Shown piece after piece: positions 19,505 through 64,000 of a DNA stretch of 64,000 nt. Numbering within the stretch: the first letter of the stretch is position 1; each line of letters begins with the position of its first letter. Under the pieces are notes generated by a model that saw only the letters and a list, made by a program, of their open reading frames with translations, was not told where the DNA came from and did not search any database. Location: contig JAKAJD010000003.1 in the NCBI GenBank assembly GCA_021813945.1, positions 109,193 through 173,192 of the forward strand, written 5' to 3'. The stretch is from a bacterium. Its GTDB lineage: Bacteria > Patescibacteriota > Microgenomatia > Curtissbacterales > GWA2-41-24. The position numbers were made by a program, and so were the translations under genes.

Positions 19505-19723
19505 TCTTTTCGCTGCATTATATATATGGTAATGTAGTTGCGGCCTGGAAAGCCGTAGGAAAACTTGAAAACGGACCTAAAACTAGAATCTGTTTCAAGC
19601 TTCTAGTTTTTTTTCGCTCTTTTACATTCCGTAATAGACAACACTAACCATGATTAAGAATTTTAATTCTTGAAAGTGGTACCCAAATTAGTAATTTCCT
19701 AAGAGTTTAAGGTGAAAATTTTT

Positions 19724-21216
<1,493 letters not shown>

Positions 21217-36829: not shown

Positions 36830-39955
<3,126 letters not shown>

Positions 39956-41674: not shown

Positions 41675-41712
41675 TATTGAAATTTCGAATTGATTCTTGT
41701 AAAATTTGCAAC

Positions 41713-41826
41713 GTGGTGATTTGAGCGAAGTGGAACCACTCCTTCCCATTCCGAACAGGGCAGTGAAACGCTTTAGCGCAGACGATAGTGATTGGGCAAC
41801 TTTTCGCGAAAATATGTCATCGCCAC
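41713..41826 (+). rRNA. rrf: 5S ribosomal RNA
   Basis: CCCATTCCGAACAGGGCAGTGAAACGCTTTAGCGC core. The terminal helix GTGGTGAT pairs with ATCGCCAC. Confidence 0.85.
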
Positions 41827-41834
41827 ATTAATTT

Positions 41835-48281: not shown

Positions 48282-48514
48282 CAGCCAAAATTTGCTTACG
48301 TGTGTGTAACTTTCTATATCTTTTAGCTTTATACACTGCGCTTTAAACGGCTCTTTTTGATAAAGATAGGCCAAGGTGTATCTTCGGAAATCATGACTTG
48401 TTAATTTCTCGATTAGATTATTGTGCTAGTCTAAAAGGGTTAATGTTGTCAAAAAAAATAACTACAGGATATGGAATTTAAGCAAGCAATTTTACTATCG
48501 GGCATTAAAAGGAC

Positions 48515-48543
48515 TTGACAAGAATTATAGAGGGTGCTAAATT
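48515..48543 (+). promoter_or_regulatory. promoter-like TTGACA-17-TAAATT in the non-coding island
   Basis: TTGACA at 48515-48520. TAAATT at 48538-48543. A terminator lies about 55 nt downstream. Confidence 0.35.
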
Positions 48544-48549
48544 CTTAAG

Positions 48550-48624
48550 GCAGGCTGAAAGTTACATCTATAGAGATATGGATGTTTAAAAAGCAGAAGC
48601 CTATTTCACATAGGCTTTTGTTTT
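48550..48624 (+). ncRNA. candidate small RNA (about 75 nt) between the promoter-like element and the terminator hairpin
   Basis: Bounded by a promoter-like element and the terminator gaagcctat-ttcac-ataggctt + TTGTTTT at 48596-48624. No ORF. Confidence 0.25.
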
Positions 48625-48775
48625 AGAAAAGACCACGTTTTTCCCAAAAGGAGAGATCTGGGATTTTTAAAACCTATTTGTTTTTCAAAAAGAAATCAAT
48701 AGGGAAAACAAGATAAGAAAAGAGCATCACTACCGCAGACTGAAACTCGAATAGCAATGCTCTTTTGAGGTGTAA

Positions 48776-48815
48776 GGGAAGCGACTTAGGGCAGCTAAGT
48801 TGCTTTCCTTTTTTA
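48776..48815 (+). terminator. rho-independent terminator-like hairpin (14-bp stem, GGCAG loop, T6)
   Basis: gggaagcgacttag-ggcag-ctaagttgctttcc followed by ttttttac. Preceded by a second hairpin at 48720-48767. Confidence 0.4.
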
Positions 48816-48976
48816 CATTAGAACATCTTTACAACCCTTGTCAAGGGGTAATGTCAAATTGGTTCTATTTAGCCTCAAATTGCCTCCATTTTTCTTCCAG
48901 AACAAGCTATTATGAGTAGAAAATTTATCCAATAATTTTGGCGTTGTGAAAATGCGGTTTTGGGTCATTATTATTG

Positions 48977-49263: not shown

Positions 49264-49292
49264 TTGACAAGGTTACTTAGTTAGTGTAAAAT
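49264..49292 (+). promoter_or_regulatory. sigma70-like promoter TTGACA-17-TAAAAT about 45 nt upstream of the 49337 ORF
   Basis: TTGACA at 49264-49269. TAAAAT at 49287-49292. Confidence 0.45.
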
Positions 49293-49336: not shown

Positions 49337-49663
49337 ATGACAAACATGCCCAAAAATAAGCACGTTTCGAGGGAAGTTCGCGAGTTTGTTTATGGTTTGA
49401 TGCAAGAGGCTGATCTTGATATTTTGCCTCCCGATTTGTGCCAAAAAATTTATAACGAGTTGCTTATTCGTTTAGATGCCAAACTGACAATAGCAGCAGT
49501 TGGCGCATTACCGGACGACAAGGTAAGCCAATTTAAAAAACTGCTTTCGGAAAATAAAACCACATCTCAAGTTTCCAATTTCTTAAATGAAAATATTCCC
49601 AATGTTGGGGAGGTTTATGCTACGGCGTTTTCAGATTTCAGAAAGGTTTATTTAGGAAAATAA
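49337..49663 (+). CDS. hypothetical 108-aa protein, translationally coupled to the downstream giant protein
   Basis: Its stop lies 1 nt before the ATG at 49665. No motif recognised. Confidence 0.5.
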   Translation: MTNMPKNKHVSREVREFVYGLMQEADLDILPPDLCQKIYNELLIRLDAKLTIAAVGALPDDKVSQFKKLLSENKTTSQVSNFLNENIPNVGEVYATAFSDFRKVYLGK

Positions 49664-49664
49664 C

Positions 49665-52600
49665 ATGGCAATTGATCAAGAAAGAGTAAAAAACCATATT
49701 ATTAGCGCTGAGGTTACCGGCGATACGCTTAGGATTAATGCTGTTCCGCATATAGTAACTGAGTCAGAGGAAAGCCGCAGGAAAAACCGGGACGTTTTGG
49801 CGGACAGGGCAACAATTGCAGGTGCAGCCGAGCGCGGTTTTTTTGGCAGAATGTGGTATGGGTTAACAGAAACTTACCAACGCTTAAGAAGAAGGGATGC
49901 TTTACGGGAACTCCATGATAACGGCAATGACATAAATTTAGGATCAGCAGCACTTGATCGAGCAAAAGATCAGGTCAGGGAAATGGTTGCCCAGGAAAGG
50001 GACGAAATCACCGCCACTGCAATTTCTAGAAATGTTAGCAACGACATAGGTCGTGGTGACATGACTCATGTATTAGATGAGGAAACTGCAGGGACTGAGC
50101 GAGATGAGGAGATTATTCTTTGGGCACGGTCAATTATTTCCGAATACGCGACAGGCCAAATTGACCAAGCCAGGATGCAGGAGCTTTCGGAAAACTTATC
50201 TTGTGAACTACGGGATGCATTGCCGGATCTTTTTGCAAAAACAACGATCGGTTCCGATTTGGTTTATATTGCTGAATCAGCCCGAGATGCATATGTGGCC
50301 AATCAGGAAAGAATTAAAAATTTAGACTTGGATTTGCAGATTTGTTTCGGACGGGTTGATGCCGGTATGGCAACTGCCGAAAAAAGAGATTTTGCAGACA
50401 AGATTGTTGATTGGTCTCAAGGAGGAAGGGCAAGGGCAGTTTTGGTGAACCCTTTTACTATTGGAGCCACCGCAAGTGCGGTAGCTTTTGGTGCTAAAGC
50501 ACCTTTTAAGAGCGTTCCGGTAATTGGTGGTATCGCTGGCGGTGCTTTTGCGGCTGTAAGGCGCTGGTCTAAAGAAAACAAAGATAGGGATTTAAGGATT
50601 AGGGAAGAAGAAATTGGCTATGAGATTCCGGAGCCTGCACAACACGCTGGTGTAGAGAGGGTTCTTTCGGGACTTGTTGGCCAAACAGATTTTAGGAAGA
50701 CTTCTTACCAACCTAGGTCCGCATTAGAAATGAGGGAAGAATTTGAAAGGCTTTCCAGCGCTGATGCTGCGGAAAAGGGAACACAAACATGGCAGGAAAA
50801 CGCTTTAAACTTGCTTGCAGATACTTCTGTTAGACTAGATGTTTCTGATGGCACTGCCGGTTTAATTCGGTATGGTCAAAGGCGTGACGCAAACGGACAA
50901 GTTGAAGTTAGCGGCATTTCAACAATAAACCAGGACAGGCTGGCTTTGATTTTAGCTGCCAGGGAAACTCAAAGGCAGTTAGTCGGCGAAATCGGCCAAA
51001 ACGATTTTGATACTAGGTATGAAGCTGTTGAGAGTCGTATTTTAGAGGAGCTTGAAGGGTGTATCAAAAAAGCAGATTCTAATTTTCATAAAAGTAGGGC
51101 TTTGATGAGTTTTCGTTCGGGCCTATTTGGAGCCGGGGTTGGTATAACGGGCGGATTTGCAATTCATGAAGTAGGGGAAGGAATCGAACATGTTTCCAGA
51201 AGAGTAGCAGATGTATTTCATCAGGCTCATGAACAAAGAGTTGTTACTGACCAGAAGGATGTTTCTCTGGGCCATGGAAATGTGATCAATGCCGATGCTA
51301 CAGCTGCCGGCCATCAAGGTCTACAGGTTGATGTTGCTTCCGGTGTTAATGCCCATTTTGATGCAGCAAAGCACACTCTTTCGGTTGATGTGCCGGCAAA
51401 TGGGGCGGATGCTGCCAAACATTTTGATATTGCTTATCAGCCTGGTATGAATGCAGACGAGATCCATGCTGCACTTGTTAAAGCCGGCCTTGACGGTAAA
51501 GTTGACATTTTACATTCGGCTGGTGTCCCTCATTTAAGTACAGAAGATATTTTAAGGCAGGACTATTTGGCACAGCATCATTTAGTCGATGTCACAAACC
51601 AACCGCACGGGATAGATTTCGGCCACGCACAATTTTTGGGTGATAAGCATGAATACAACGAACTGACGCTCTACCAGCAAGATGCAACGCATTGGTCAAT
51701 GGGCCCGCACGGTTTGGACGGATCGGCCCTTAAACCTTTTGTTTACAAAAATGAGCCTGCATGGCCTGACCCATCTATTGCCGCGAACGCACCAGTTAAC
51801 CCTGATTCATTAGTTGCTTTTTACCAAATAACGGATAGCCACGGCCAGCTTCATACCATTTTGGCACCCCAGAATGGCGGGCATTTTACCTTGCCGCAGG
51901 AGTTTGTTGATCCGGCAACCGGCAAAGTGGACGGAGTTTCCATCATAGGCTACGGCATGGTTAAAGACGCGCATGGAAAATTGATTGACGGAAACCAGGT
52001 TATTGCTCATCCGGAGCTTATGAACGGTGCAACTTTGCATTCGATGGCTTCGGTGCCTTTAGAGCAAAAGGGTCACATGATTTCGCAAAATTTATCCACA
52101 GTCAAAATTTCTGATTTAACCGCACATGTTACAGGGCAACACACGGAAACAGTTGAGGCTTCAAATAAATTTGTTTTTGACATTCCGCCAATTGCAACGC
52201 CTTTTGCGCCAAGGCTGTTTCCTAATATAGCGGAACCTCCAGTACCACCGGAGCCGCCATATTATGCACCAGGCGAAGGTTATCAGAAGTGGATTGAATC
52301 TAGAGATCTAAACCGTACGAAATATATTAAATCTGATTCTGGAATTTGGGTTGATCCTGAGGGCAATCCGGTTGTACGCGATGTGGCGAGAGAAAGGCAA
52401 GAAGTTTCTGATTATTTATCTTCTCAGGAAGATAGTTACAGAGAAGAACTGAATTCTGTTGCTGACAGTTTACCTGAGATGTCAGATGAAGCAAGAGTTG
52501 TAATTTGTATTCCAGCAAGGATGGAAGAAAAGAATATCAAGAGATTGCTTGATATGTATACGAGGCAAGTTGGCCAGGACGGCTTGCCACTTGATCCATC

Positions 52601-54032
52601 TTTATATGAGATAAACATCCTTTCTAATGGACCTGAAGGGGAGCAGATAGACAATACTGTAAAAGTTGTTCAAAAGTTTCATAAAAAACATCCTCAGTTT
52701 AGGGTTGTGGTTATAGACAAAGCGTTTCCCAAAGACAAAGCTAGTGTAGGTTTGGCTAGAAAGTATCTGACCGATTTAGCACTGGTTAGATCACTAAGGA
52801 GAAATGGTCAAGCAGCCCCGCTTTATATCCAGTCTGAGGATGCAGACCTTGTCAATGTTGATCCTAAGACTGTTGTTAGACTAATCGATAAATTTGATGC
52901 AGACCCGGCTATTGATGCATTAAGGGGAAAACAGGACAGGAACCCGGATGTTCTAATGAACAACGACTTATTGTTTTTCCAAAGAAGGCTTTGGGATTTT
53001 GGCGAAATTATGCTAAGGAGTAAAAAGTATAGAGAGGGATCCAAGGGTGATTTTACATGGAATAGAGTAGTAACCGGTGGTTGGAATACAGCGTTTTCTG
53101 CAGAAGTTTACGCGCTAATTGGTGGATACAACGAAAATGCCCGTATTGGTGAAGATATGGATATCGGTAATAAGATTTCTCTAATTAGGGGTGATGCGGG
53201 GGAGCCAAATGTAGAGACTATTAAGACAGTTGCTTCAAGAACTGATTCAAGCCCACGAAGGTTTATAAAGGCAATTGCCGAAAGGACAAATCCTTACGAC
53301 AATTTTGATGATCAAACTTTTAAGAAACTTAAAGATGGAGAGTTATTGGCCAGAATAAGAGCATTTGCAAGAATTTCGGAGGAAAATAAAGGGACTTTTG
53401 AGACTTATGCAACTGGTAATTTAGCCTTTTTGGTCTCTGTTCTGAAAGATCAAGATGAAGCGAATAAATTATTTAGGAGAGTAATGGGTTTTGTGGGCTT
53501 CAGAAATGGTGATTTTGAGATTGAGAATGGACATGTGAAGATTTTAAACATAAATAATTTTAAGGCAAGCGTTAATTCATACAGGGAAAAGAAACAAACG
53601 GAATCGATCAGAAAAGTTGTGAGGAAAGTTTGGCGCAGAGGTTCTAGCACAAAGGAAACGAAAAGAGAAAATACTTTAGGTATGTCGAAGGAGAATTTCG
53701 AGGAAGCAGCTAGGTTTGCGGCAACTAAGAGTTCTGCTGAGCAAGAAAAGAGATCGCTTTATGAATGGATGGTACTCCTTAGTGCTGCAAGAGATCTTGG
53801 TGTCGAATCCGAAGACGATGAAGAATTAGATTATTTGTCGGGTTTTCTTCCAAGTAATCGTGCGGTGAAATTAAGCGGAAAAATGGCTGAAAAAATGACA
53901 AAGCATGCGGCAATTGCGGAAATGTCACGAATGAGTCAAGAACCACCCAAAGTGAGCAAGCTTGCAAATATAGGAAAGAAAGTTGTACAATCCGTGCCTG
54001 TTGCTAAAAAGTTGACCGCTAGAACAAGCTAA
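49665..54032 (+). CDS. giant (1455 aa) multidomain protein: N-terminal helical region, TM hairpin, His-rich middle region, Pro-rich linker and C-terminal GT-A fold glycosyltransferase domain
   Basis: The GT-A motifs are VVICIPARMEE (like xxIIPAYNE), VVVIDKAF, the DXD-like IQSEDADLV, and TGGWNTAFSAEVYALIGGYNENARIGEDMDIGNKI (like GGFDE...GEDxDL). Hydrophobic segments lie at about aa 255-300 and 495-515. Confidence 0.6.
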   Translation: MAIDQERVKNHIISAEVTGDTLRINAVPHIVTESEESRRKNRDVLADRATIAGAAERGFFGRMWYGLTETYQRLRRRDALRELHDNGNDINLGSAALDRAKDQVREMVAQERDEITATAISRNVSNDIGRGDMTHVLDEETAGTERDEEIILWARSIISEYATGQIDQARMQELSENLSCELRDALPDLFAKTTIGSDLVYIAESARDAYVANQERIKNLDLDLQICFGRVDAGMATAEKRDFADKIVDWSQGGRARAVLVNPFTIGATASAVAFGAKAPFKSVPVIGGIAGGAFAAVRRWSKENKDRDLRIREEEIGYEIPEPAQHAGVERVLSGLVGQTDFRKTSYQPRSALEMREEFERLSSADAAEKGTQTWQENALNLLADTSVRLDVSDGTAGLIRYGQRRDANGQVEVSGISTINQDRLALILAARETQRQLVGEIGQNDFDTRYEAVESRILEELEGCIKKADSNFHKSRALMSFRSGLFGAGVGITGGFAIHEVGEGIEHVSRRVADVFHQAHEQRVVTDQKDVSLGHGNVINADATAAGHQGLQVDVASGVNAHFDAAKHTLSVDVPANGADAAKHFDIAYQPGMNADEIHAALVKAGLDGKVDILHSAGVPHLSTEDILRQDYLAQHHLVDVTNQPHGIDFGHAQFLGDKHEYNELTLYQQDATHWSMGPHGLDGSALKPFVYKNEPAWPDPSIAANAPVNPDSLVAFYQITDSHGQLHTILAPQNGGHFTLPQEFVDPATGKVDGVSIIGYGMVKDAHGKLIDGNQVIAHPELMNGATLHSMASVPLEQKGHMISQNLSTVKISDLTAHVTGQHTETVEASNKFVFDIPPIATPFAPRLFPNIAEPPVPPEPPYYAPGEGYQKWIESRDLNRTKYIKSDSGIWVDPEGNPVVRDVARERQEVSDYLSSQEDSYREELNSVADSLPEMSDEARVVICIPARMEEKNIKRLLDMYTRQVGQDGLPLDPSLYEINILSNGPEGEQIDNTVKVVQKFHKKHPQFRVVVIDKAFPKDKASVGLARKYLTDLALVRSLRRNGQAAPLYIQSEDADLVNVDPKTVVRLIDKFDADPAIDALRGKQDRNPDVLMNNDLLFFQRRLWDFGEIMLRSKKYREGSKGDFTWNRVVTGGWNTAFSAEVYALIGGYNENARIGEDMDIGNKISLIRGDAGEPNVETIKTVASRTDSSPRRFIKAIAERTNPYDNFDDQTFKKLKDGELLARIRAFARISEENKGTFETYATGNLAFLVSVLKDQDEANKLFRRVMGFVGFRNGDFEIENGHVKILNINNFKASVNSYREKKQTESIRKVVRKVWRRGSSTKETKRENTLGMSKENFEEAARFAATKSSAEQEKRSLYEWMVLLSAARDLGVESEDDEELDYLSGFLPSNRAVKLSGKMAEKMTKHAAIAEMSRMSQEPPKVSKLANIGKKVVQSVPVAKKLTARTS

Positions 54033-57748: not shown

Positions 57749-59875
57749 ATGAGAAAATACCTGCCGGTTATTCTGGGCGTTTTTTCTTTTCTGCTGCCGC
57801 TTGGACTTTACTTAAAAACGCTTTCGCCAACTTATATTCCGGTTGATTCGGCCGAGTTTACACTTTGTATTAAATTCTGGGGCCTTTGCCATCCGCCGGG
57901 GTTTCCATTTTATATTTTCTTGGGGCATATTTTAACTTCAGTTTTTACCTTTGGAAGCCTTATTTTTAGAGTTAATTTTCTTTCAGCTTTGTATGCGGCC
58001 ATGACAATTTTAGTTGTATATATGACCCTTCTTCGTGTCGGCGTGAAAGGACCTTTGGCGTTTTTGGTTTCAATGATTTTGACGGTTTCAGCAGCTTTTT
58101 GGGAATATTCAATTTCTGCAGATGTCTTTTCGTTTGCAACTTTGCTTTTAGCACTAACTTTCCTTTTTACGTTTTGGGAGAAGCCGATACTTGCCTTTTT
58201 GGCTTTGGGATTTTCGGCTTCCCATTTTTACATTACGGTAATTTTAGTGCCGATTCTGATTTGGTATTTTAGGAAAAAAGGGGATAAGGGAGACGGAGGA
58301 AACAAAATTTGGAATTTTAGCTGGAAGGGAATTAAATTTGGAGATCTGGTAATTTGGGGAATTTTTTTCAGCTTAGGTTTTGTAGGCCAGATTCTCATGA
58401 TAGCCCGCATGCAGCAGGACCCGGTTATCAATTGGGGCCACGCCAAGGGAATAAGCGGCATCATTTACTATCTGAGGCGCAAGGAATTCGGATCGATTTT
58501 TCTGATTAAAAACCCGGTTTTAACCTTTTCGGTTATTAAATACGCTAAGCACATTTACGTTTATCTTCTAGATATTGTGGTGGGATTCGGTGTAGTCTTG
58601 CCTATTTTAGTGCCACTGGGGCTTGCTAAAGAAGGTTTGTGGCGAGAAAAGAAGGTAATTTTTCTGATCTTAAGCTGGCTTTTTGTGATTTTAGTGCAGC
58701 TTTTCTTGCTATCGACCATTGATCCGCTGGGAGCGGATAACCCTTTTCAGATAACTAAGTTTTATTTAGTTTCTTATGTGCCGCTGGTTATTTTAGTAGG
58801 AATGGCTACGCAAAAGTTTGTAGATTGGTTTTTTGAAGGAGATGGTACGTATGTCAATTTGCTTTTGGGGGCGGTGGTCGTTGTTTACCTTCTTTCCAGC
58901 TTTAAATCGCATAATTTGAGCAAAAACTACTTCTCAGAGAAAATGGTTGAAGATGCTATGGATCAGTTGCCGAATGGGTCTGTTGGCATAACAGTTTCCC
59001 ATGTTTTTTACTTCGGAGGACTTTATGAGCAGAAAATTAACGGAAAATATGGCGGGGTGACGCTACTTTATTTCCCGAACGAATATAACCGCGATAACGA
59101 GGGATATCACCCTGATCTTTTTTCCGGAAAGGTGGATGAAGCATTTATTGCCAAGGTTCGGGGAGCAAATCAGCTGGGAAATGCGGAAAACTATATTCTT
59201 GAAACAATCTCCAAAAATCCGGGACGGGACATTTATATTTTGCAAGGAACGTTTGAAGAAGGATTTTTTAAATATCTGGATCCGTATAAAGTACCTTACG
59301 GCTTGTGGTGGAGGGTTGCTAGAAATCCGGCTGAAAAACCGGATTTGGAGAAAATTTTTGGCCTACTTTCGGGACTTAGAAACGACGGCGTCAAATACAG
59401 CGATTTTGCTTTTAAACAGCAAAAGATGGACACGATGCTTTATGCCGTTTCTTATAATTCGACCGGAGTTTTGGCGGCAAAGTATGGGCAATGGGATAGG
59501 GCAGTCGCGTTTCTTGAAAAAAGCGATGCAGTGCAACCGGGGAATGCCAATGTTAAAGCAGAAATGGAGCTTGTTAAAAAGGTGAAGGATTTATGGGGGC
59601 GGGAAGGGGATCTTTTAGGGGCTAAAGATGTTTCGACGTTGTCTGATTTGGGAAACGGACTTTTTAATTTGGGAAATTACGAAGGGTGTGTAAAGGTTTA
59701 TGCGGACGTTTTAAAAATTGAGCAAAAGGCTCCCGATTACAATAACTTGGCTTCGTGTCTTGCTTCGTCCGGGAATCTTGCTGAAGCAAAAGCGAATTAC
59801 GAAAAAGCGTTGGCTTTGGATCCAAATCTGGATATGGCAAAACAAGGTTTGGCGAAGGTGAATGAGCAAAGATAA
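57749..59875 (+). CDS. polytopic membrane protein (DUF2723 / GT-C-like glycosyltransferase architecture) with C-terminal TPR repeats
   Basis: About 11 TM helices in the N-terminal 380 aa (DSAEF...GLCHPPGFPFYIFLGH). C-terminal TPRs (LGNGLFNLGNYEGCVKVYADVL..., NLAEAKANYEKALALDPN). Confidence 0.5.
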   Translation: MRKYLPVILGVFSFLLPLGLYLKTLSPTYIPVDSAEFTLCIKFWGLCHPPGFPFYIFLGHILTSVFTFGSLIFRVNFLSALYAAMTILVVYMTLLRVGVKGPLAFLVSMILTVSAAFWEYSISADVFSFATLLLALTFLFTFWEKPILAFLALGFSASHFYITVILVPILIWYFRKKGDKGDGGNKIWNFSWKGIKFGDLVIWGIFFSLGFVGQILMIARMQQDPVINWGHAKGISGIIYYLRRKEFGSIFLIKNPVLTFSVIKYAKHIYVYLLDIVVGFGVVLPILVPLGLAKEGLWREKKVIFLILSWLFVILVQLFLLSTIDPLGADNPFQITKFYLVSYVPLVILVGMATQKFVDWFFEGDGTYVNLLLGAVVVVYLLSSFKSHNLSKNYFSEKMVEDAMDQLPNGSVGITVSHVFYFGGLYEQKINGKYGGVTLLYFPNEYNRDNEGYHPDLFSGKVDEAFIAKVRGANQLGNAENYILETISKNPGRDIYILQGTFEEGFFKYLDPYKVPYGLWWRVARNPAEKPDLEKIFGLLSGLRNDGVKYSDFAFKQQKMDTMLYAVSYNSTGVLAAKYGQWDRAVAFLEKSDAVQPGNANVKAEMELVKKVKDLWGREGDLLGAKDVSTLSDLGNGLFNLGNYEGCVKVYADVLKIEQKAPDYNNLASCLASSGNLAEAKANYEKALALDPNLDMAKQGLAKVNEQR

Positions 59876-61175: not shown

Positions 61176-63497
61176 TTAGAAGCTTGGTTTTTGGGTTGGA
61201 GCTGGGCTCGGTTGAGCTGAAGCTTCCGGGATTGGACTTGGAGAAGGTGAGGGGCTGGCGGATGGTTGGCCCTGTTGTTGTTTAGCGGCTTGTTCTTGAA
61301 GGTCCCTGAGTTGTTTGTTGTAGTCGTCTAGCTTTTTGTTGATATCTGAAAGCGCCGGGTCGTCTGATGGCAGGTATTGTTTGGCTAGTGACAATTCACT
61401 AACAATTGTGGGGACGCTGCCTTTTTTATCAATCAAAAGATTGGCCAGGTTGTAGTGTGCCGGGCCGTAATCACCCTTTGTTATGATGGCATCTTCAAAC
61501 TTTCTTTGGGCTAAATCGGCATTTCCCAACCTCTGGTAAAGAACGCCAAGCCTGTTGTGCAGAATTGGGTTTTGGGGATCTAAAGATACCGCCTGGGCTA
61601 ATGTGTTGGTGGCGTGGACATCTGCTCCTTGGACTGCTCCGATTAAGGCTTGATATACCGCTGCTAACGTTTCCCAGTTGGAAACATTGGCAGCTGAAAT
61701 GCCTGGAAGTTTAAGGGGCAAAATTTGATAGCCTGAGGCGGCTTTTCCTTGGTCTATGGCAACTTGGGCCAGTTGACCTAAAAGTTGTTTTTGGTTGTCG
61801 TTTAAGTCCTTTTGTTGGCTTAGATTGATAGCAGCGTTTAAGGTTGTTTGGGAAAGGGCACGGTGATAAGTGTCGATTGCCGGATTTGCCTGAATGGCTT
61901 GCTGCAGGTATTGAACGGTTTTATTGCCGTTATTGGATTGGGCAGCCAAAAGTGACTGGCGGTAGTAGTATTCGGCCCGGTAAGCATTAACCTGATAAAC
62001 AAGTGCTAAAAAGGAGGCGACTACAACAATAATGCCGAAGATAGCCGGAAGGATTTGAGATTTGGCTCCTTTGGCGCCTGCTTCTGTTTTAAGAAGAGCT
62101 TCACCTTCTCCGGGTGCGGCAATGGGAAACCAAGAGAAACGGTTTTTTAAAGCGGCCAGTTCCAGGGTTACTTCAAAGACGTAATCTTCATTAGTGGCTT
62201 TGGCCAGAACTGCCAACATTGAAAGGGCTAAAAAGAATGACGCATAGCTCGCAAATGAGGACACTGTAAAGAAGCTGGCAATAACATATCCCAAAATAGC
62301 AGCGGCAACTGGCAGGTAGACAAGAGTGTGCTGGCTTTTGAAAATCAGAGACCAGATGAATCTTAAGACGACTACCATAAGCAGTAGGTAAGCCAAGACT
62401 CCAAAGACGCCGGTTGTGGCGATTACATCGGTAAAGTCCGAAGAAGATTTATCGAAACGAACGGCCCAGCTTTGACCACCATTCATAACACGGGGCTTAA
62501 GCTGTGTGTAGACGAACTGGTAGGTGCCAGGGCCAGTCCCAAAAAGCGGTTTTTTACCGATCGCCTGGGCGGCGATGTCCCAAGCAGTTCCAGCCGGAAC
62601 AAGCTGTTCTTTGGGGGTGTCGATTTGTTGCTGCTCGGTTAGACCTTGATCCTTAGAAATGATCCATTGATAGAGCGTACCTTGAGCAACCTGCGGAACA
62701 AAGCGGATTACCAAAAAGAGGATGATAAAAACTGCCAAGACTGCGGCGTGACCCTGCTGGGTTTTGGTCAATTTTACCCTTAAGGTTCCGACAGTTAAAA
62801 AGATGAGGGCGACTGCAAGACCAATGTAGGCCGGTAGATCATTTATTAATATAAAGGAGAAAGCAAGAATCAGGGTGCAGCCGGTTGCGATTATTCTTAT
62901 CAATTTATCTTTTTCATAAATGGCCCAGGAGGCAGCAATTGGGATAACAAGAGCTTCCAAAAGAGCCAGGCGGTTGATGATGCCGACCGGGTTAAAGGAG
63001 CGGATATGTGCAAAATCAAACGGTAGGAAGGCACCAAAGTAGGAAGTTATGGCAACAAGAGCACCGATTGTGGTTGCGCCGACGAGGGTCCAGAGAACTG
63101 TGTTAACTTGGCGTCTGGTTTTTAAGGTTGCAACAGAAACAAAGTAGAATGCAGCAATTATTAAAAGAGGAATGAAGCTGGGCCAGGCCCTGCCCTGAAC
63201 TCCGAAAAAGGAGATGAATTGGTCAATTGAGGAGTAGGCAGCGATAAAATAGACGGCCAAAATCACAAGGATTGGAATGTCTAGCGGGGTTCTAGTAAAG
63301 ACGACTCTTTTTTCAAAAATCATTTTGACTGCCCAAACTATAAAGGAAGCAATTGTAAGTATTAAAAGGGCTGTGAATTTATTGAATTCAAAGAATTCAG
63401 AGGTTGTTGGCAGGAAGAAAAGGGGAGTTAGAAAGGCTGCGGCAACAACCAGCGAAAAGATTATGGATTGTGACAGCTTTAAGAAATTCTCTTTCAT
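61176..63497 (-). CDS. large polytopic membrane protein (O-antigen ligase / Wzy_C-like architecture) with C-terminal TPR repeats and a Ser/Pro-rich tail
   Basis: About 12 TM helices in the N-terminal 480 aa, with a periplasmic-loop-sized hydrophilic insert. C-terminal TPR-like repeats (NRLGVLYQRLGNADLAQRKFEDAI..). Tail QPSASPSPSPSPIPEASAQPSPAPT. Confidence 0.45.
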   Translation of the reverse strand: MKENFLKLSQSIIFSLVVAAAFLTPLFFLPTTSEFFEFNKFTALLILTIASFIVWAVKMIFEKRVVFTRTPLDIPILVILAVYFIAAYSSIDQFISFFGVQGRAWPSFIPLLIIAAFYFVSVATLKTRRQVNTVLWTLVGATTIGALVAITSYFGAFLPFDFAHIRSFNPVGIINRLALLEALVIPIAASWAIYEKDKLIRIIATGCTLILAFSFILINDLPAYIGLAVALIFLTVGTLRVKLTKTQQGHAAVLAVFIILFLVIRFVPQVAQGTLYQWIISKDQGLTEQQQIDTPKEQLVPAGTAWDIAAQAIGKKPLFGTGPGTYQFVYTQLKPRVMNGGQSWAVRFDKSSSDFTDVIATTGVFGVLAYLLLMVVVLRFIWSLIFKSQHTLVYLPVAAAILGYVIASFFTVSSFASYASFFLALSMLAVLAKATNEDYVFEVTLELAALKNRFSWFPIAAPGEGEALLKTEAGAKGAKSQILPAIFGIIVVVASFLALVYQVNAYRAEYYYRQSLLAAQSNNGNKTVQYLQQAIQANPAIDTYHRALSQTTLNAAINLSQQKDLNDNQKQLLGQLAQVAIDQGKAASGYQILPLKLPGISAANVSNWETLAAVYQALIGAVQGADVHATNTLAQAVSLDPQNPILHNRLGVLYQRLGNADLAQRKFEDAIITKGDYGPAHYNLANLLIDKKGSVPTIVSELSLAKQYLPSDDPALSDINKKLDDYNKQLRDLQEQAAKQQQGQPSASPSPSPSPIPEASAQPSPAPTQKPSF

Positions 63498-63634: not shown

Positions 63635-64000
63635 TTAGGAATCGTGGGGGAAAATGAGGTGCTGTATTTTATATTGATATTCCTGTTCGGCTTTCACGAA
63701 TTCTCTGTATGAGTTACGTGCTGCATCAATACTAGCATTTTTTGTTTTGAACATCGCCAAAATAAATTTAGTATCCACAATATCATCAACTTTCTCTTCA
63801 ATGTAGGAAGGATAGCTGCTCCAGGAATATGAAGGGAGTTTGGTGACCAGTTTTTTTGGGTTTAGGTGAATATATCTGGAAAGGTGCATTAGATATTCAT
63901 CCTTATTTATGATTTTGGCTTTAAAGCGATCTTGAAAGACATGGCCAATTTGATCATATTTTTTGTTGAAGTACATCGAATATGCAGTGTGGAGCCTTTG
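63635..64000 (-). CDS. REP-associated tyrosine transposase (RAYT, IS200/IS605 TnpA-like Y1 HUH family), C-terminal part; N-terminus beyond the window end
   Basis: GHVFQDRFKAKIINKDEYLMHLSRYIHLNPKKL...YSWSSY closely parallels the RAYT consensus GHLWQGRYKS...YLL.L.RYIE.NPV...YRWSSY. The reading frame stays open to position 64000. Confidence 0.75.
   Translation of the reverse strand, partial: QRLHTAYSMYFNKKYDQIGHVFQDRFKAKIINKDEYLMHLSRYIHLNPKKLVTKLPSYSWSSYPSYIEEKVDDIVDTKFILAMFKTKNASIDAARNSYREFVKAEQEYQYKIQHLIFPHDS

Follow-up and report, generated by a model that had tools for sequence, protein, structure and literature searches.

A two-gene cassette of Patescibacteria pairing a DUF5663-like protein with a giant protein that carries a GT2-type glycosyltransferase domain

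We analysed a stretch of 64,000 nucleotides (hereafter, the window) from a patescibacterium (GTDB lineage Bacteria; Patescibacteriota; Microgenomatia; Curtissbacterales; GWA2-41-24; NCBI GenBank assembly GCA_021813945.1, contig JAKAJD010000003.1, positions 109,193 to 173,192 of the forward strand), and in particular a cassette of two adjacent open reading frames (ORFs), a small one of 108 amino acids (aa) followed by a giant one of 1455 aa. The giant ORF very probably encodes a real and conserved protein that ends in a GT2-type glycosyltransferase (GT) domain and is paired with a DUF5663-like protein, the product of the small ORF. Far more tentative is the full mechanism that we favour, in which the giant protein would be a membrane-tethered, inverting GT acting in the cytoplasm together with its DUF5663 partner. 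The catalytic GT2 kind is already known, and the two-gene architecture that spans the candidate phyla radiation (CPR, Patescibacteria) is new. In the literature on DUF5663, giant CPR glycosyltransferases and CPR-enriched families we found no description of the giant-protein family, and neither the N-terminal module (N-module), the middle domain, the pairing with DUF5663 nor the overall architecture had been described in the literature found.

The two genes and their conservation

A first-pass annotation of the window, made from the letters and a list of ORFs, had proposed the two ORFs with a gap of a single nucleotide between them, and both were recovered as such (Table 1). Their junction reads TAA-C-ATG, with AGGAAA eight bases before the ATG of the giant ORF; for the small ORF, some gene callers use the ATG at 49346, which gives 105 aa. 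Four independent assemblies (three metagenome assemblies of NCBI and one from Logan) agree exactly in the sequence of the 1455-aa ORF, which is therefore no assembly or frameshift artefact. A join of smaller genes by such an error, in favour of which it can be said that the system is split in one relative (L011/L024, with ORFs of 622 aa and 699 aa aligning to aa 155-507 and 860-1309 of the window protein), has next to no probability: besides the identical assemblies, the split L011 pair clusters at ≥90 % identity with a fused, single 1350-aa protein, and single giant ORFs of 1250-2545 aa with the same domain order are present in dozens of loci from different phyla. The fusion artefact that the first-pass annotation had named as a danger is thus refuted, and the giant ORF is a single genuine gene.

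The pairing was examined at 34 loci from species-representative genomes (Saccharibacteria, Doudna-, Gracili-, Moranii-, Nomura-, Gottesman- and Levybacteria, Microgenomates, and a few outliers), of which 27 Patescibacteria loci include upstream sequence. A DUF5663-like ORF abuts or overlaps the start of the giant GT-bearing ORF in about 24 of these 27, and when the flanking ORFs were clustered all against all and complemented with an orthologue profile, it was the only recurrent neighbour (28 of 40 loci). The 108-aa ORF itself scored 22.1 bits with Pfam PF18908 (cut-off 23.7) and was homologous (BLASTP E 3e-12) to a 99-aa ORF of L011, which has an unmarked, precomputed PF18908 (DUF5663) match at E at most 1e-5. 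In L005, L009 and L010, the last of which is very distant, an orthologue of the small ORF stands directly before the giant gene; homology of DUF5663 to chaperone families was not detected. From these sequence comparisons, the DUF5663-like ORF is probably a translationally coupled functional partner, conserved with the giant gene across phyla, in agreement with the coupling that had been supposed for it at first.

The cassette occurs once in the window and in at least eight CPR lineages. The genes around it are radA, a PIN/TRAM gene, rho, a LysM-M23 peptidase gene, a TMEM260-like gene and obg, and the order radA, PIN/TRAM, cassette, rho, LysM-M23, obg is common to four related genomes. The named relatives nearest to the window protein come from Microgenomates-type genomes (Gottesmanbacteria, Levybacteria, and Microgenomates GW2011_GWF2_46_18). 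Within the gene, the GT part has a G+C content of 0.39 against 0.45-0.47 in the N-terminal part. No match for either ORF was found in PADLOC and PHROGs, and no relative of the giant protein among the viral contigs of IMG/VR; phage and defence-system readings were rejected on this basis. The single copy in the window, the synteny shared by four genomes, the spread over lineages and the absence from viral contigs, PHROGs and PADLOC together argue for a vertical cellular role, and we lean toward a conserved, vertically inherited cellular function.

The glycosyltransferase domain

The C-terminal part of the giant protein carries, in order, the motifs VVICIPARMEE (aa 945-955), FRVVVIDKAF (1012-1021), EDADL (1058-1062) and GGWNTAF...GEDMDIG (1138-1168). 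A profile of the domain retrieved 22 more relatives, and the resulting alignment was fed to AlphaFold2 (AF2), which gave a model of aa 900-1290 with a predicted local distance difference test (pLDDT) score of 92.6 and a predicted template modelling (pTM) score of 0.91. Foldseek returned 79 PDB matches at E at most 1e-3, and the best 50 of these 79 were all GT-A glycosyltransferases, mostly of GT2, with the cellulose-synthase-like type first. The top neighbour was the 'minimal cellulose-synthase-like' mannosyltransferase PcManGT (6yv7, E 2e-9), and further ones were hyaluronan synthases, the fucosyltransferase WrtF, BcsA, the chondroitin polymerase K4CP and chitin synthases. By modelled fold and motifs, the domain is placed with GT2, nearest to the cellulose-synthase-like group. 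The first-pass annotation had assigned a GT-A/GT2 domain of about 450 aa to this end of the protein; the assignment holds, but the fold covers only about 350 aa (about 940-1290), the last 165 aa or so being a separate tail.

Conservation of a DXD-dependent motif, on which that assignment had been made to hang, was also observed. Over 26 sequences, the conservation of both Asp residues of the DXD (D160 and D162 in the numbering of the domain alignment) is at least 90 %, and A1060 and D1061 are invariant in five full-length relatives. Among the 26 relatives, full or near invariance extends to GWNTAF(S/T)AE, the Glu of GED and the two Arg of SSPRR (1195-1199), and, in the same numbering, to G240, N242, Y250, G255 and E264; SSPRR(F/Y/H) is kept in most of the 26, and R1198 and R1199 are invariant in the five. 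Searches of the NCBIfam and PDB sequences with the whole giant protein gave no match, and PDB profile searches with the GT alignments retrieved 6yv7 over no more than its first beta-strand region, or else spurious matches to nucleoporins; therefore, the equivalence of the motifs to those of solved GT2 enzymes is not shown by sequence. The family had been left unplaced at first; it is in fact without a placement, and no source found gives its proteins a name.

N-terminal module, middle domain, linker and tail

Two hydrophobic helices, a His-rich middle, a Pro-rich linker and the ordered GT-A motifs had been listed at first for the giant protein, and all of them are present (Table 1). The absence of a recognisable signal peptide was likewise confirmed, no hydrophobic signal being found at the N-terminus. 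The two helices lie at aa 258-277 and 284-298 in the window protein; a third conserved one, at aa 482-503 or so, had been overlooked. The family conserves exactly three hydrophobic segments (aa 256-278, 280-299 and 482-503; 17-23 residues), and the giant protein has none after aa 503. For the N-terminal region (aa 1-255) and the middle domain (mid2) no significant fold match was obtained among solved structures; for the N-terminal 900 aa as a whole the structure search likewise gave no significant fold, Tc-toxin and XaxB-type entries appearing only at E above 0.6, and the fold searches showed no resemblance of the N-terminal part to known translocation or secretion domains.

His reaches 9-10 per 100 aa over aa 501-700, and most of the mid2 model has a pLDDT of 70-88, its loops being disordered. 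In aa 801-900 the Pro content is as high as 13 per 100 aa, and there the Pro-rich stretch EPPVPPEPPYYAPGEGY (aa 857-873, of low model confidence) and a YYxxG motif (aa 866-870) are found in the linker. A short linker motif, PP(V/I)x(T/L)PFxPRxx(L/P)E, is conserved in the family (among the aligned members, 29 of 32 have P846 and 30 of 33 have R850). Of 93 proteins with a GT, 54 contain a loose form of the motif about 91 aa ahead of that domain, and it could be a docking site or a cleavage/processing site. The tail sequence is conserved only among five close relatives, and the last 55 aa hold 12 K+R against 3 D+E.

Table 1. Coordinates of the features discussed (positions of the window, unless a locus is named).
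Feature	Residues (aa)	Position (nt)	Strand	Remarks
Promoter-like site TTGACA-17 nt-TAAAAT		49264-49292	+	11/12 consensus matches; 45 nt before small ORF
Small ORF, 108 aa		49337-49663	+	DUF5663-like; directly upstream of giant ORF
Giant ORF, 1455 aa		49665-54032	+	uncharacterised Patescibacteria-wide family
N-terminal region	1-255	49665-50429	+	mostly helical, two small beta-sheets; AF2 pLDDT about 90
Hydrophobic hairpin H1/H2	256-299	50430-50561	+	Gly/Ala-rich, K/R on both flanks; family-wide hydropathy peak
Helical region mid1	300-481	50562-51107	+	pLDDT 88-97; with the hairpin, most widely conserved part of the family
Hydrophobic segment H3	482-503	51108-51173	+	embedded in one long helix, aa 445-520
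Middle domain mid2	524-830	51234-52154	+	beta-rich, His-rich; contains HGIDFGHAQFLGDKHEY and THWSMGPHGLDGS; lineage-restricted
Pro-rich disordered linker	831-900	52155-52364	+	pLDDT below 50
Short linker motif	841-854	52185-52226		conserved in family
GT-A fold, GT2-type (cellulose-synthase-like) domain	940-1290	52482-53534	+	AF2 and Foldseek
DXD motif D1059-A1060-D1061	1059-1061	52839-52847	+	conserved in relatives
GGWNTAFSAE...GEDMDIG block	1138-1168	53076-53168	+	G-E-D 1162-1164, candidate catalytic-base region
SSPRRF motif	1195-1200	53247-53264	+	helix start, 34 aa after GED
C-terminal tail	1291-1455	53535-54029	+	separate from GT fold; basic end
TQ/TP-repeat ORF, 205 aa		54052-54669	+	downstream of giant ORF
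TMEM260_N/TPR and Wzy_C genes		57749-59875 and ~61176-63497	-	neighbourhood kept in L005 and L009
VirD4/TrwB-like genes		L010 7811-10336; L013 3614-6148; L014 4113-6635		

Reach of the family and standalone relatives

A word-indexed search with the whole giant protein found four relatives. An exhaustive profile search with its N-terminal 900 aa, counted in representative clusters, matched 439 clusters at E at most 1e-3 and 229 at E at most 1e-10. Full-length orthologues are 40-58 % identical to the window protein; most family members are 1000-2470 aa long and match only profile positions of about 44-497, that is, the N-terminal helices, the hairpin, the helical region behind it and the third hydrophobic helix. 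Domain counts were made on 151 family representatives (150 listed of the 439, plus P0002). The same GT module is present in 71 of them, always C-terminal to the N-module, and mid2 in 36. Pfam scans for extra domains on 28 sampled members located a Ser/Thr kinase (Pkinase) in four, PP2C in one and an FkbM-type methyltransferase in one. In P0056 and P0076 the kinase is C-terminal to the GT on the same polypeptide, in one case with PP2C as well; the canonical kinase pattern HRDxKxxN had no match in family members, and the kinases were located by a looser pattern and Pfam. In P0041 a GT9 domain takes the place of the GT2 module, which, with the GT in 71 of 151, makes glycosyl transfer tethered to the N-module a recurring theme. 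Basic C-termini are overrepresented throughout the family: in 24.5 % of members the final 40 aa carry a net charge of ≥+6, a value reached by 1.8 % of internal segments.

The GT module also occurs without the N-module. One such case has an archaeal context (L012 10001-12139, flanked by genes for Spt4, Rpb7, S24e and S27e; a 361-aa ORF upstream in this locus is unrelated to the N-module), and another locus is labelled Methanosarcinales (L043 415-3213), which suggests that the module moved between CPR bacteria and archaea. A 462-aa homologue of the GT stands alone in Cellulosilyticum ruminicola JCM 14822, a cultured Firmicute (L046 1-16837), and a standalone homologue is also present in Hungatella sp. 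(L045). The conserved cluster around it encodes a peptidase U32-like protein, a DegT aminotransferase, an APH kinase, a xylose-isomerase-like TIM barrel, a radical-SAM/SPASM protein, a GH13 enzyme, a GFO/IDH/MocA oxidoreductase, an ABC transporter and UDP-glucose dehydrogenase, and appears to be an uncharacterised glycan or aminoglycoside-like pathway. That the C. ruminicola homologue passes Pfam GT2 and lies in a sugar-biosynthesis cluster supports a real glycosyltransferase activity of the module.

Favoured mechanism and its alternatives

In the mechanism that we tentatively favour, the hydrophobic helices would tether the giant protein to the membrane of its own cell, with all soluble parts in the cytoplasm. 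The GT would bind a nucleotide-sugar through a divalent cation held by the DXD and transfer the sugar with inversion, as is predicted from knowledge of the GT2 family, to a membrane-proximal acceptor, which may be a lipid-linked glycan, a glycolipid or an envelope precursor. The DUF5663 protein, judging from the coupling and the co-conservation, would be a stoichiometric partner, that is, a subunit, a chaperone or a regulator. A membrane tether is suggested by the three hydrophobic segments conserved throughout the family, with their K/R-rich flanks. Action in the cytoplasm is suggested by the kinase and PP2C domains of P0056 and P0076, which need ATP and metal ions as the GT needs a nucleotide-sugar. 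Cellulose-synthase-like GT2 and GT9 enzymes work at the cytoplasmic face of the membrane.

Several observations weigh against this mechanism. The window protein reaches only 16.2 bits with Pfam GT2 (19.9 for the isolated domain; gathering cut-off 23.3), and its membership therefore follows through homologues, namely L046, which passes with 29.1 bits, and the relative P0022, which has PF13641. In the closest relative, P0002 (L005/L006), the N-terminal 870 aa are 70-86 % identical to those of the window protein, and yet the GT module (aa 962-1166) is 29 % identical, has GAD for DAD and is without the GWN block, whereas in the more distant P0003 the GT is 56 % identical to that of the window; P0002 is the only one of the 26 relatives with a degenerate DXD. 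The module of P0002 was either exchanged or is decaying, and either way the N-terminal part seems to serve a separate function; because of this divergence, catalysis may be dispensable in some lineages. The hydrophobic segments are Gly/Ala-rich with a family-wide mean Kyte-Doolittle value of 1.0-1.44, below the classical 1.6, and in 63 of 151 members no hydrophobic segment reaches 1.6, so that membrane insertion is an inference. Across 40 loci no lipid-carrier, flippase or polymerase gene was consistently linked, and no acceptor, donor or pathway partner of the GT was identified. Finally, the flanking charges (K+R per 15 alignment columns) are 2.9 before H1, 0.8 in the H1-H2 loop, 5.1 after H2, 4.3 before H3 and 1.1 after H3, where the net charge is -1.4. 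Taken at face value, the positive-inside rule would put the N-terminus and mid1 in the cytoplasm and everything after H3 outside, a pattern that contradicts the cytoplasmic model unless H3 is monotopic. We see two ways to read it. In the one we hold to, with reserve, H3 does not fully span the membrane and the whole protein is tethered on the cytoplasmic side, as with the cellulose-synthase-like GT2 and GT9 enzymes whose acceptors are membrane-bound; in the other, which we consider unlikely, it leaves its cell and acts in the cytoplasm of a partner.

Export is the core of an explanation that the first-pass annotation had already set beside a surface-glycan system. Several features speak for the effector reading, unlikely as we consider it. 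A host-directed effector would leave through a secretion machine, plausibly a type IV secretion system (T4SS), with the DUF5663 protein as chaperone or adaptor; the hairpin would insert in the partner membrane, and the GT (in some members the kinase or PP2C) would modify targets in the partner cytoplasm. The giant protein has no signal peptide, a small helical ORF is translationally coupled upstream of it as with secretion chaperones, a bilobed hydrophobic hairpin lies well inside it, and accessory enzymatic domains differ between members. Delivery into another cell would also reconcile a C-terminal part predicted to be 'out' with enzymes that need cytoplasmic cofactors. The enriched basic C-termini fit as well, although a basic tail has many other possible explanations. 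A coupling ATPase of the VirD4/TrwB type is encoded one or two genes downstream in L010, L013 and L014; this adjacency is confined, however, to 3 of 40 loci, and the window has no VirD4-like gene. A T4SS of unknown function has been reported as universal in Saccharibacteria (PMC10187176). Against an effector stand the resemblance of the GT to housekeeping GT2 enzymes and not to a known toxin family, the lack of likeness of the N-terminal part to translocation or secretion domains, and the occurrence of the cassette as a single copy among housekeeping genes, apparently vertical across CPR lineages. Effector repertoires typically behave differently. Still somewhat less probable, in our estimate, is a cassette that is an ancestral, CPR-wide device of host interaction, in which the DUF5663 protein would escort its giant partner to the secretion apparatus, which may be the CPR T4SS, the hairpin and H3 would insert in the partner membrane, and the tethered enzymes (the GT2, and in some lineages kinase, PP2C or GT9) would remodel envelope precursors or proteins of the partner from inside. 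In its size, its several domains, its GT-A domain with a DXD and its lack of a signal peptide, the giant protein also recalls the toxin glycosyltransferases of GT44/GT88 (large-clostridial-toxin-like or Legionella Lgt-like), with which a comparison had been proposed at first. That identity is highly improbable: the best 50 of the 79 Foldseek matches include no GT44/GT88 structure, the PDB sequence searches gave no match of the giant protein to any solved toxin, and its N-terminal 900 aa match Tc-toxin and XaxB-type folds only at the insignificant E given above.

Two further explanations keep the protein in its own cell. It might be a cytoplasmic protein-modifying enzyme or signalling scaffold, with the GT O-glycosylating the cell's own Ser/Thr residues and the N-module serving as a membrane-associated scaffold. 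The kinase in 4 of 28 sampled members and the PP2C act on the same hydroxyl groups and lie C-terminal to the GT on the same polypeptide, and the N-module is strongly constrained even where the GT has degenerated (P0002). The nearest structures are nevertheless GT2 enzymes with glycan or lipid-linked acceptors and not protein O-glycosyltransferases, the GT9 domain and the FkbM-type methyltransferase point to glycan building, and kinase and PP2C, present in a minority of members, could be regulatory; we therefore judge this scaffold to be decidedly unlikely. Very unlikely is a minimal polysaccharide synthase-exporter, in which several copies would come together, the three hydrophobic helices of each lining a membrane pore through which the GT feeds a growing glycan. 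The processive enzymes among the top structural neighbours (hyaluronan, cellulose and chitin synthases), along with the 'minimal' PcManGT, speak for it, as do GED and SSPRR(F), which in order and 34-aa spacing recall the TED and QxxRW known for the family; the QxxRW itself is not present, however, and the helices are about 450-700 residues away from the GT, with a disordered linker between.

Neighbouring genes

The TP-repeat ORF that had been reported downstream is present. Its 205-aa product has an N-terminal signal/anchor, TQ and TP repeats, and a C-terminus ('SPETG', a hydrophobic stretch and KRR) that resembles a sortase sorting signal; it is a plausible target of O-glycosylation. The gene is absent in L007 and encodes 303 aa in L005, and this inconstancy among relatives sets it apart from the cassette. 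Of the three-gene block described at first, a two-gene unit remains.

A few kb downstream lie a TMEM260_N/TPR gene (GT-C-type, protein O-mannosyltransferase-like) and a Wzy_C gene (O-antigen ligase-like); one possibility is that the GT2 makes a lipid-linked sugar for enzymes of the TMEM260/Wzy_C type. An IS200-like Y1 transposase gene (about 63635-64000) runs off the end of the window. The VirD4/TrwB-like protein of the three loci mentioned above has about 842 aa, with DUF8128 and TrwB_AAD_bind, and in L010 and L014 its gene is followed by GtrA-like and DnaX genes. The rRNA genes of the window (19722-21214, 36835-39880 and 41712-41828) are unlinked, the 16S and 23S genes being 15.6 kb apart and the 5S gene lying 1.8 kb after the 23S; the 23S match is 3046 nt long against a model of 2925 nt, which suggests an insertion. 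Such unlinked rRNA genes, along with the genes that surround the cassette, identify the DNA as that of a patescibacterium.

Upstream region

A strong promoter and a non-coding island rich in repetitive extragenic palindromic (REP) elements had been placed ahead of the cassette. A promoter-like sequence, TTGACAAG...GTGTAAAAT, was indeed found and is kept in L005, a candidate site known from its consensus match alone. The island is not REP-rich: the 1 kb upstream contains only 13-nt chance repeats, and the REP idea was discarded. An Rfam scan of the upstream region matched no family.

A non-coding block at 48440-48930 (core 48718-48816) is much more conserved than the genes that flank it; in L005 and L007, where the orthologues of the window protein reach no more than 58 % and 48 % identity, about 100 nt of the block are unchanged (100 % identity). 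The block folds as a stem-loop with a strong terminator (z -5.2), and another promoter-like site (48515-48543) stands ahead of a 79-nt unit of its own, a hairpin plus terminator at 48548-48626 (z -4.9). This part of the window is a candidate for one or more novel small RNA genes that are independent of the cassette. Before the cassette, ORFs without Pfam match were found in L007 (5770-7854; 369 and 316 aa) and L009 (3956-5858; 363 and 258 aa); those of L007, which is also without the DUF5663 ORF, fill the space that is non-coding in the window.

Significance

Patescibacteria make up a large share of bacterial diversity and live attached to other microbes, and very few of their conserved lineage-specific genes have an assigned function. 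The cassette encodes one of the largest proteins in their tiny genomes, in which about 900 residues are without a known fold and the catalytic domain can be assayed and mutated. The lineage spread, the large size, the catalytic domain and the small partner therefore recommend it as a target for genetics, which has now become feasible in Saccharibacteria. The work places DUF5663 in a genomic context, which it had lacked so far, and establishes a new family module at the N-terminus. If the protein builds an envelope glycan, the cassette would amount to a cell-surface pathway peculiar to the CPR; an exported protein would be a conserved effector of episymbiosis and, in the reading as an ancestral host-interaction device, the first conserved one of the epibiotic lifestyle. 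The standalone cluster in a cultured Firmicute could help to find the donor sugar.

Comparison with known systems

The toxin glycosyltransferases (GT44 TcdA/TcdB, GT88 Legionella Lgt, and SetA) are like the giant protein large and multidomain, with a GT-A domain, a DXD, no Sec signal and a need for the cytoplasm; unlike them, the giant protein is without homologous translocation, CROP or autoprotease domains, and its neighbourhood is of the housekeeping kind throughout the CPR. Substrates of type III, IV and VII secretion with an upstream partner of about 100 aa offer an analogy in the coupled small helical ORF, the helical N-terminus and the basic C-terminus, from which the cassette differs in that DUF5663 is without chaperone homology and a secretion gene is linked in 3 of 40 loci only. 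The standalone homologues of the Firmicutes (Cellulosilyticum ruminicola and Hungatella sp.) and of archaeal metagenome assemblies share a GT core that is 40-43 % identical, with the same motifs, but they are about 460-930 aa long, have neither the N-module nor DUF5663, and lie in a glycan or secondary-metabolite cluster instead of the CPR cassette.

Processive GT2 enzymes (BcsA, hyaluronan and chitin synthases, and NodC) carry a TED ... QxxRW arrangement, with QxxRW on the interfacial helix. In the giant protein QxxRW is replaced by SSPRR(F/Y/H), without the Gln and the Trp and with a positional equivalence that is inferred, and in place of a multi-helix channel after the GT there are only the three weakly hydrophobic helices, 450-700 residues upstream; QxxRW and the attached channel being missing, we do not class it as a processive synthase. 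The GT-A fold is common to it and to PcManGT, the hyaluronan synthases of Chlorella virus and Xenopus, BcsA and the chitin synthases (E 2e-9 to 1e-5). With cellulose-synthase-like GT2 enzymes it differs in sequence (identity 10-15 %, with the sub-threshold Pfam GT2 score), in the 900-aa N-terminal part of no known fold and in the obligate-looking DUF5663 partner, and it agrees with them in the order of the motifs (the acidic residue of beta1, the DXD, G-x-N, (G/T)ED and a basic/aromatic motif on the next helix) and in being expected, as they are, to work beside the membrane.

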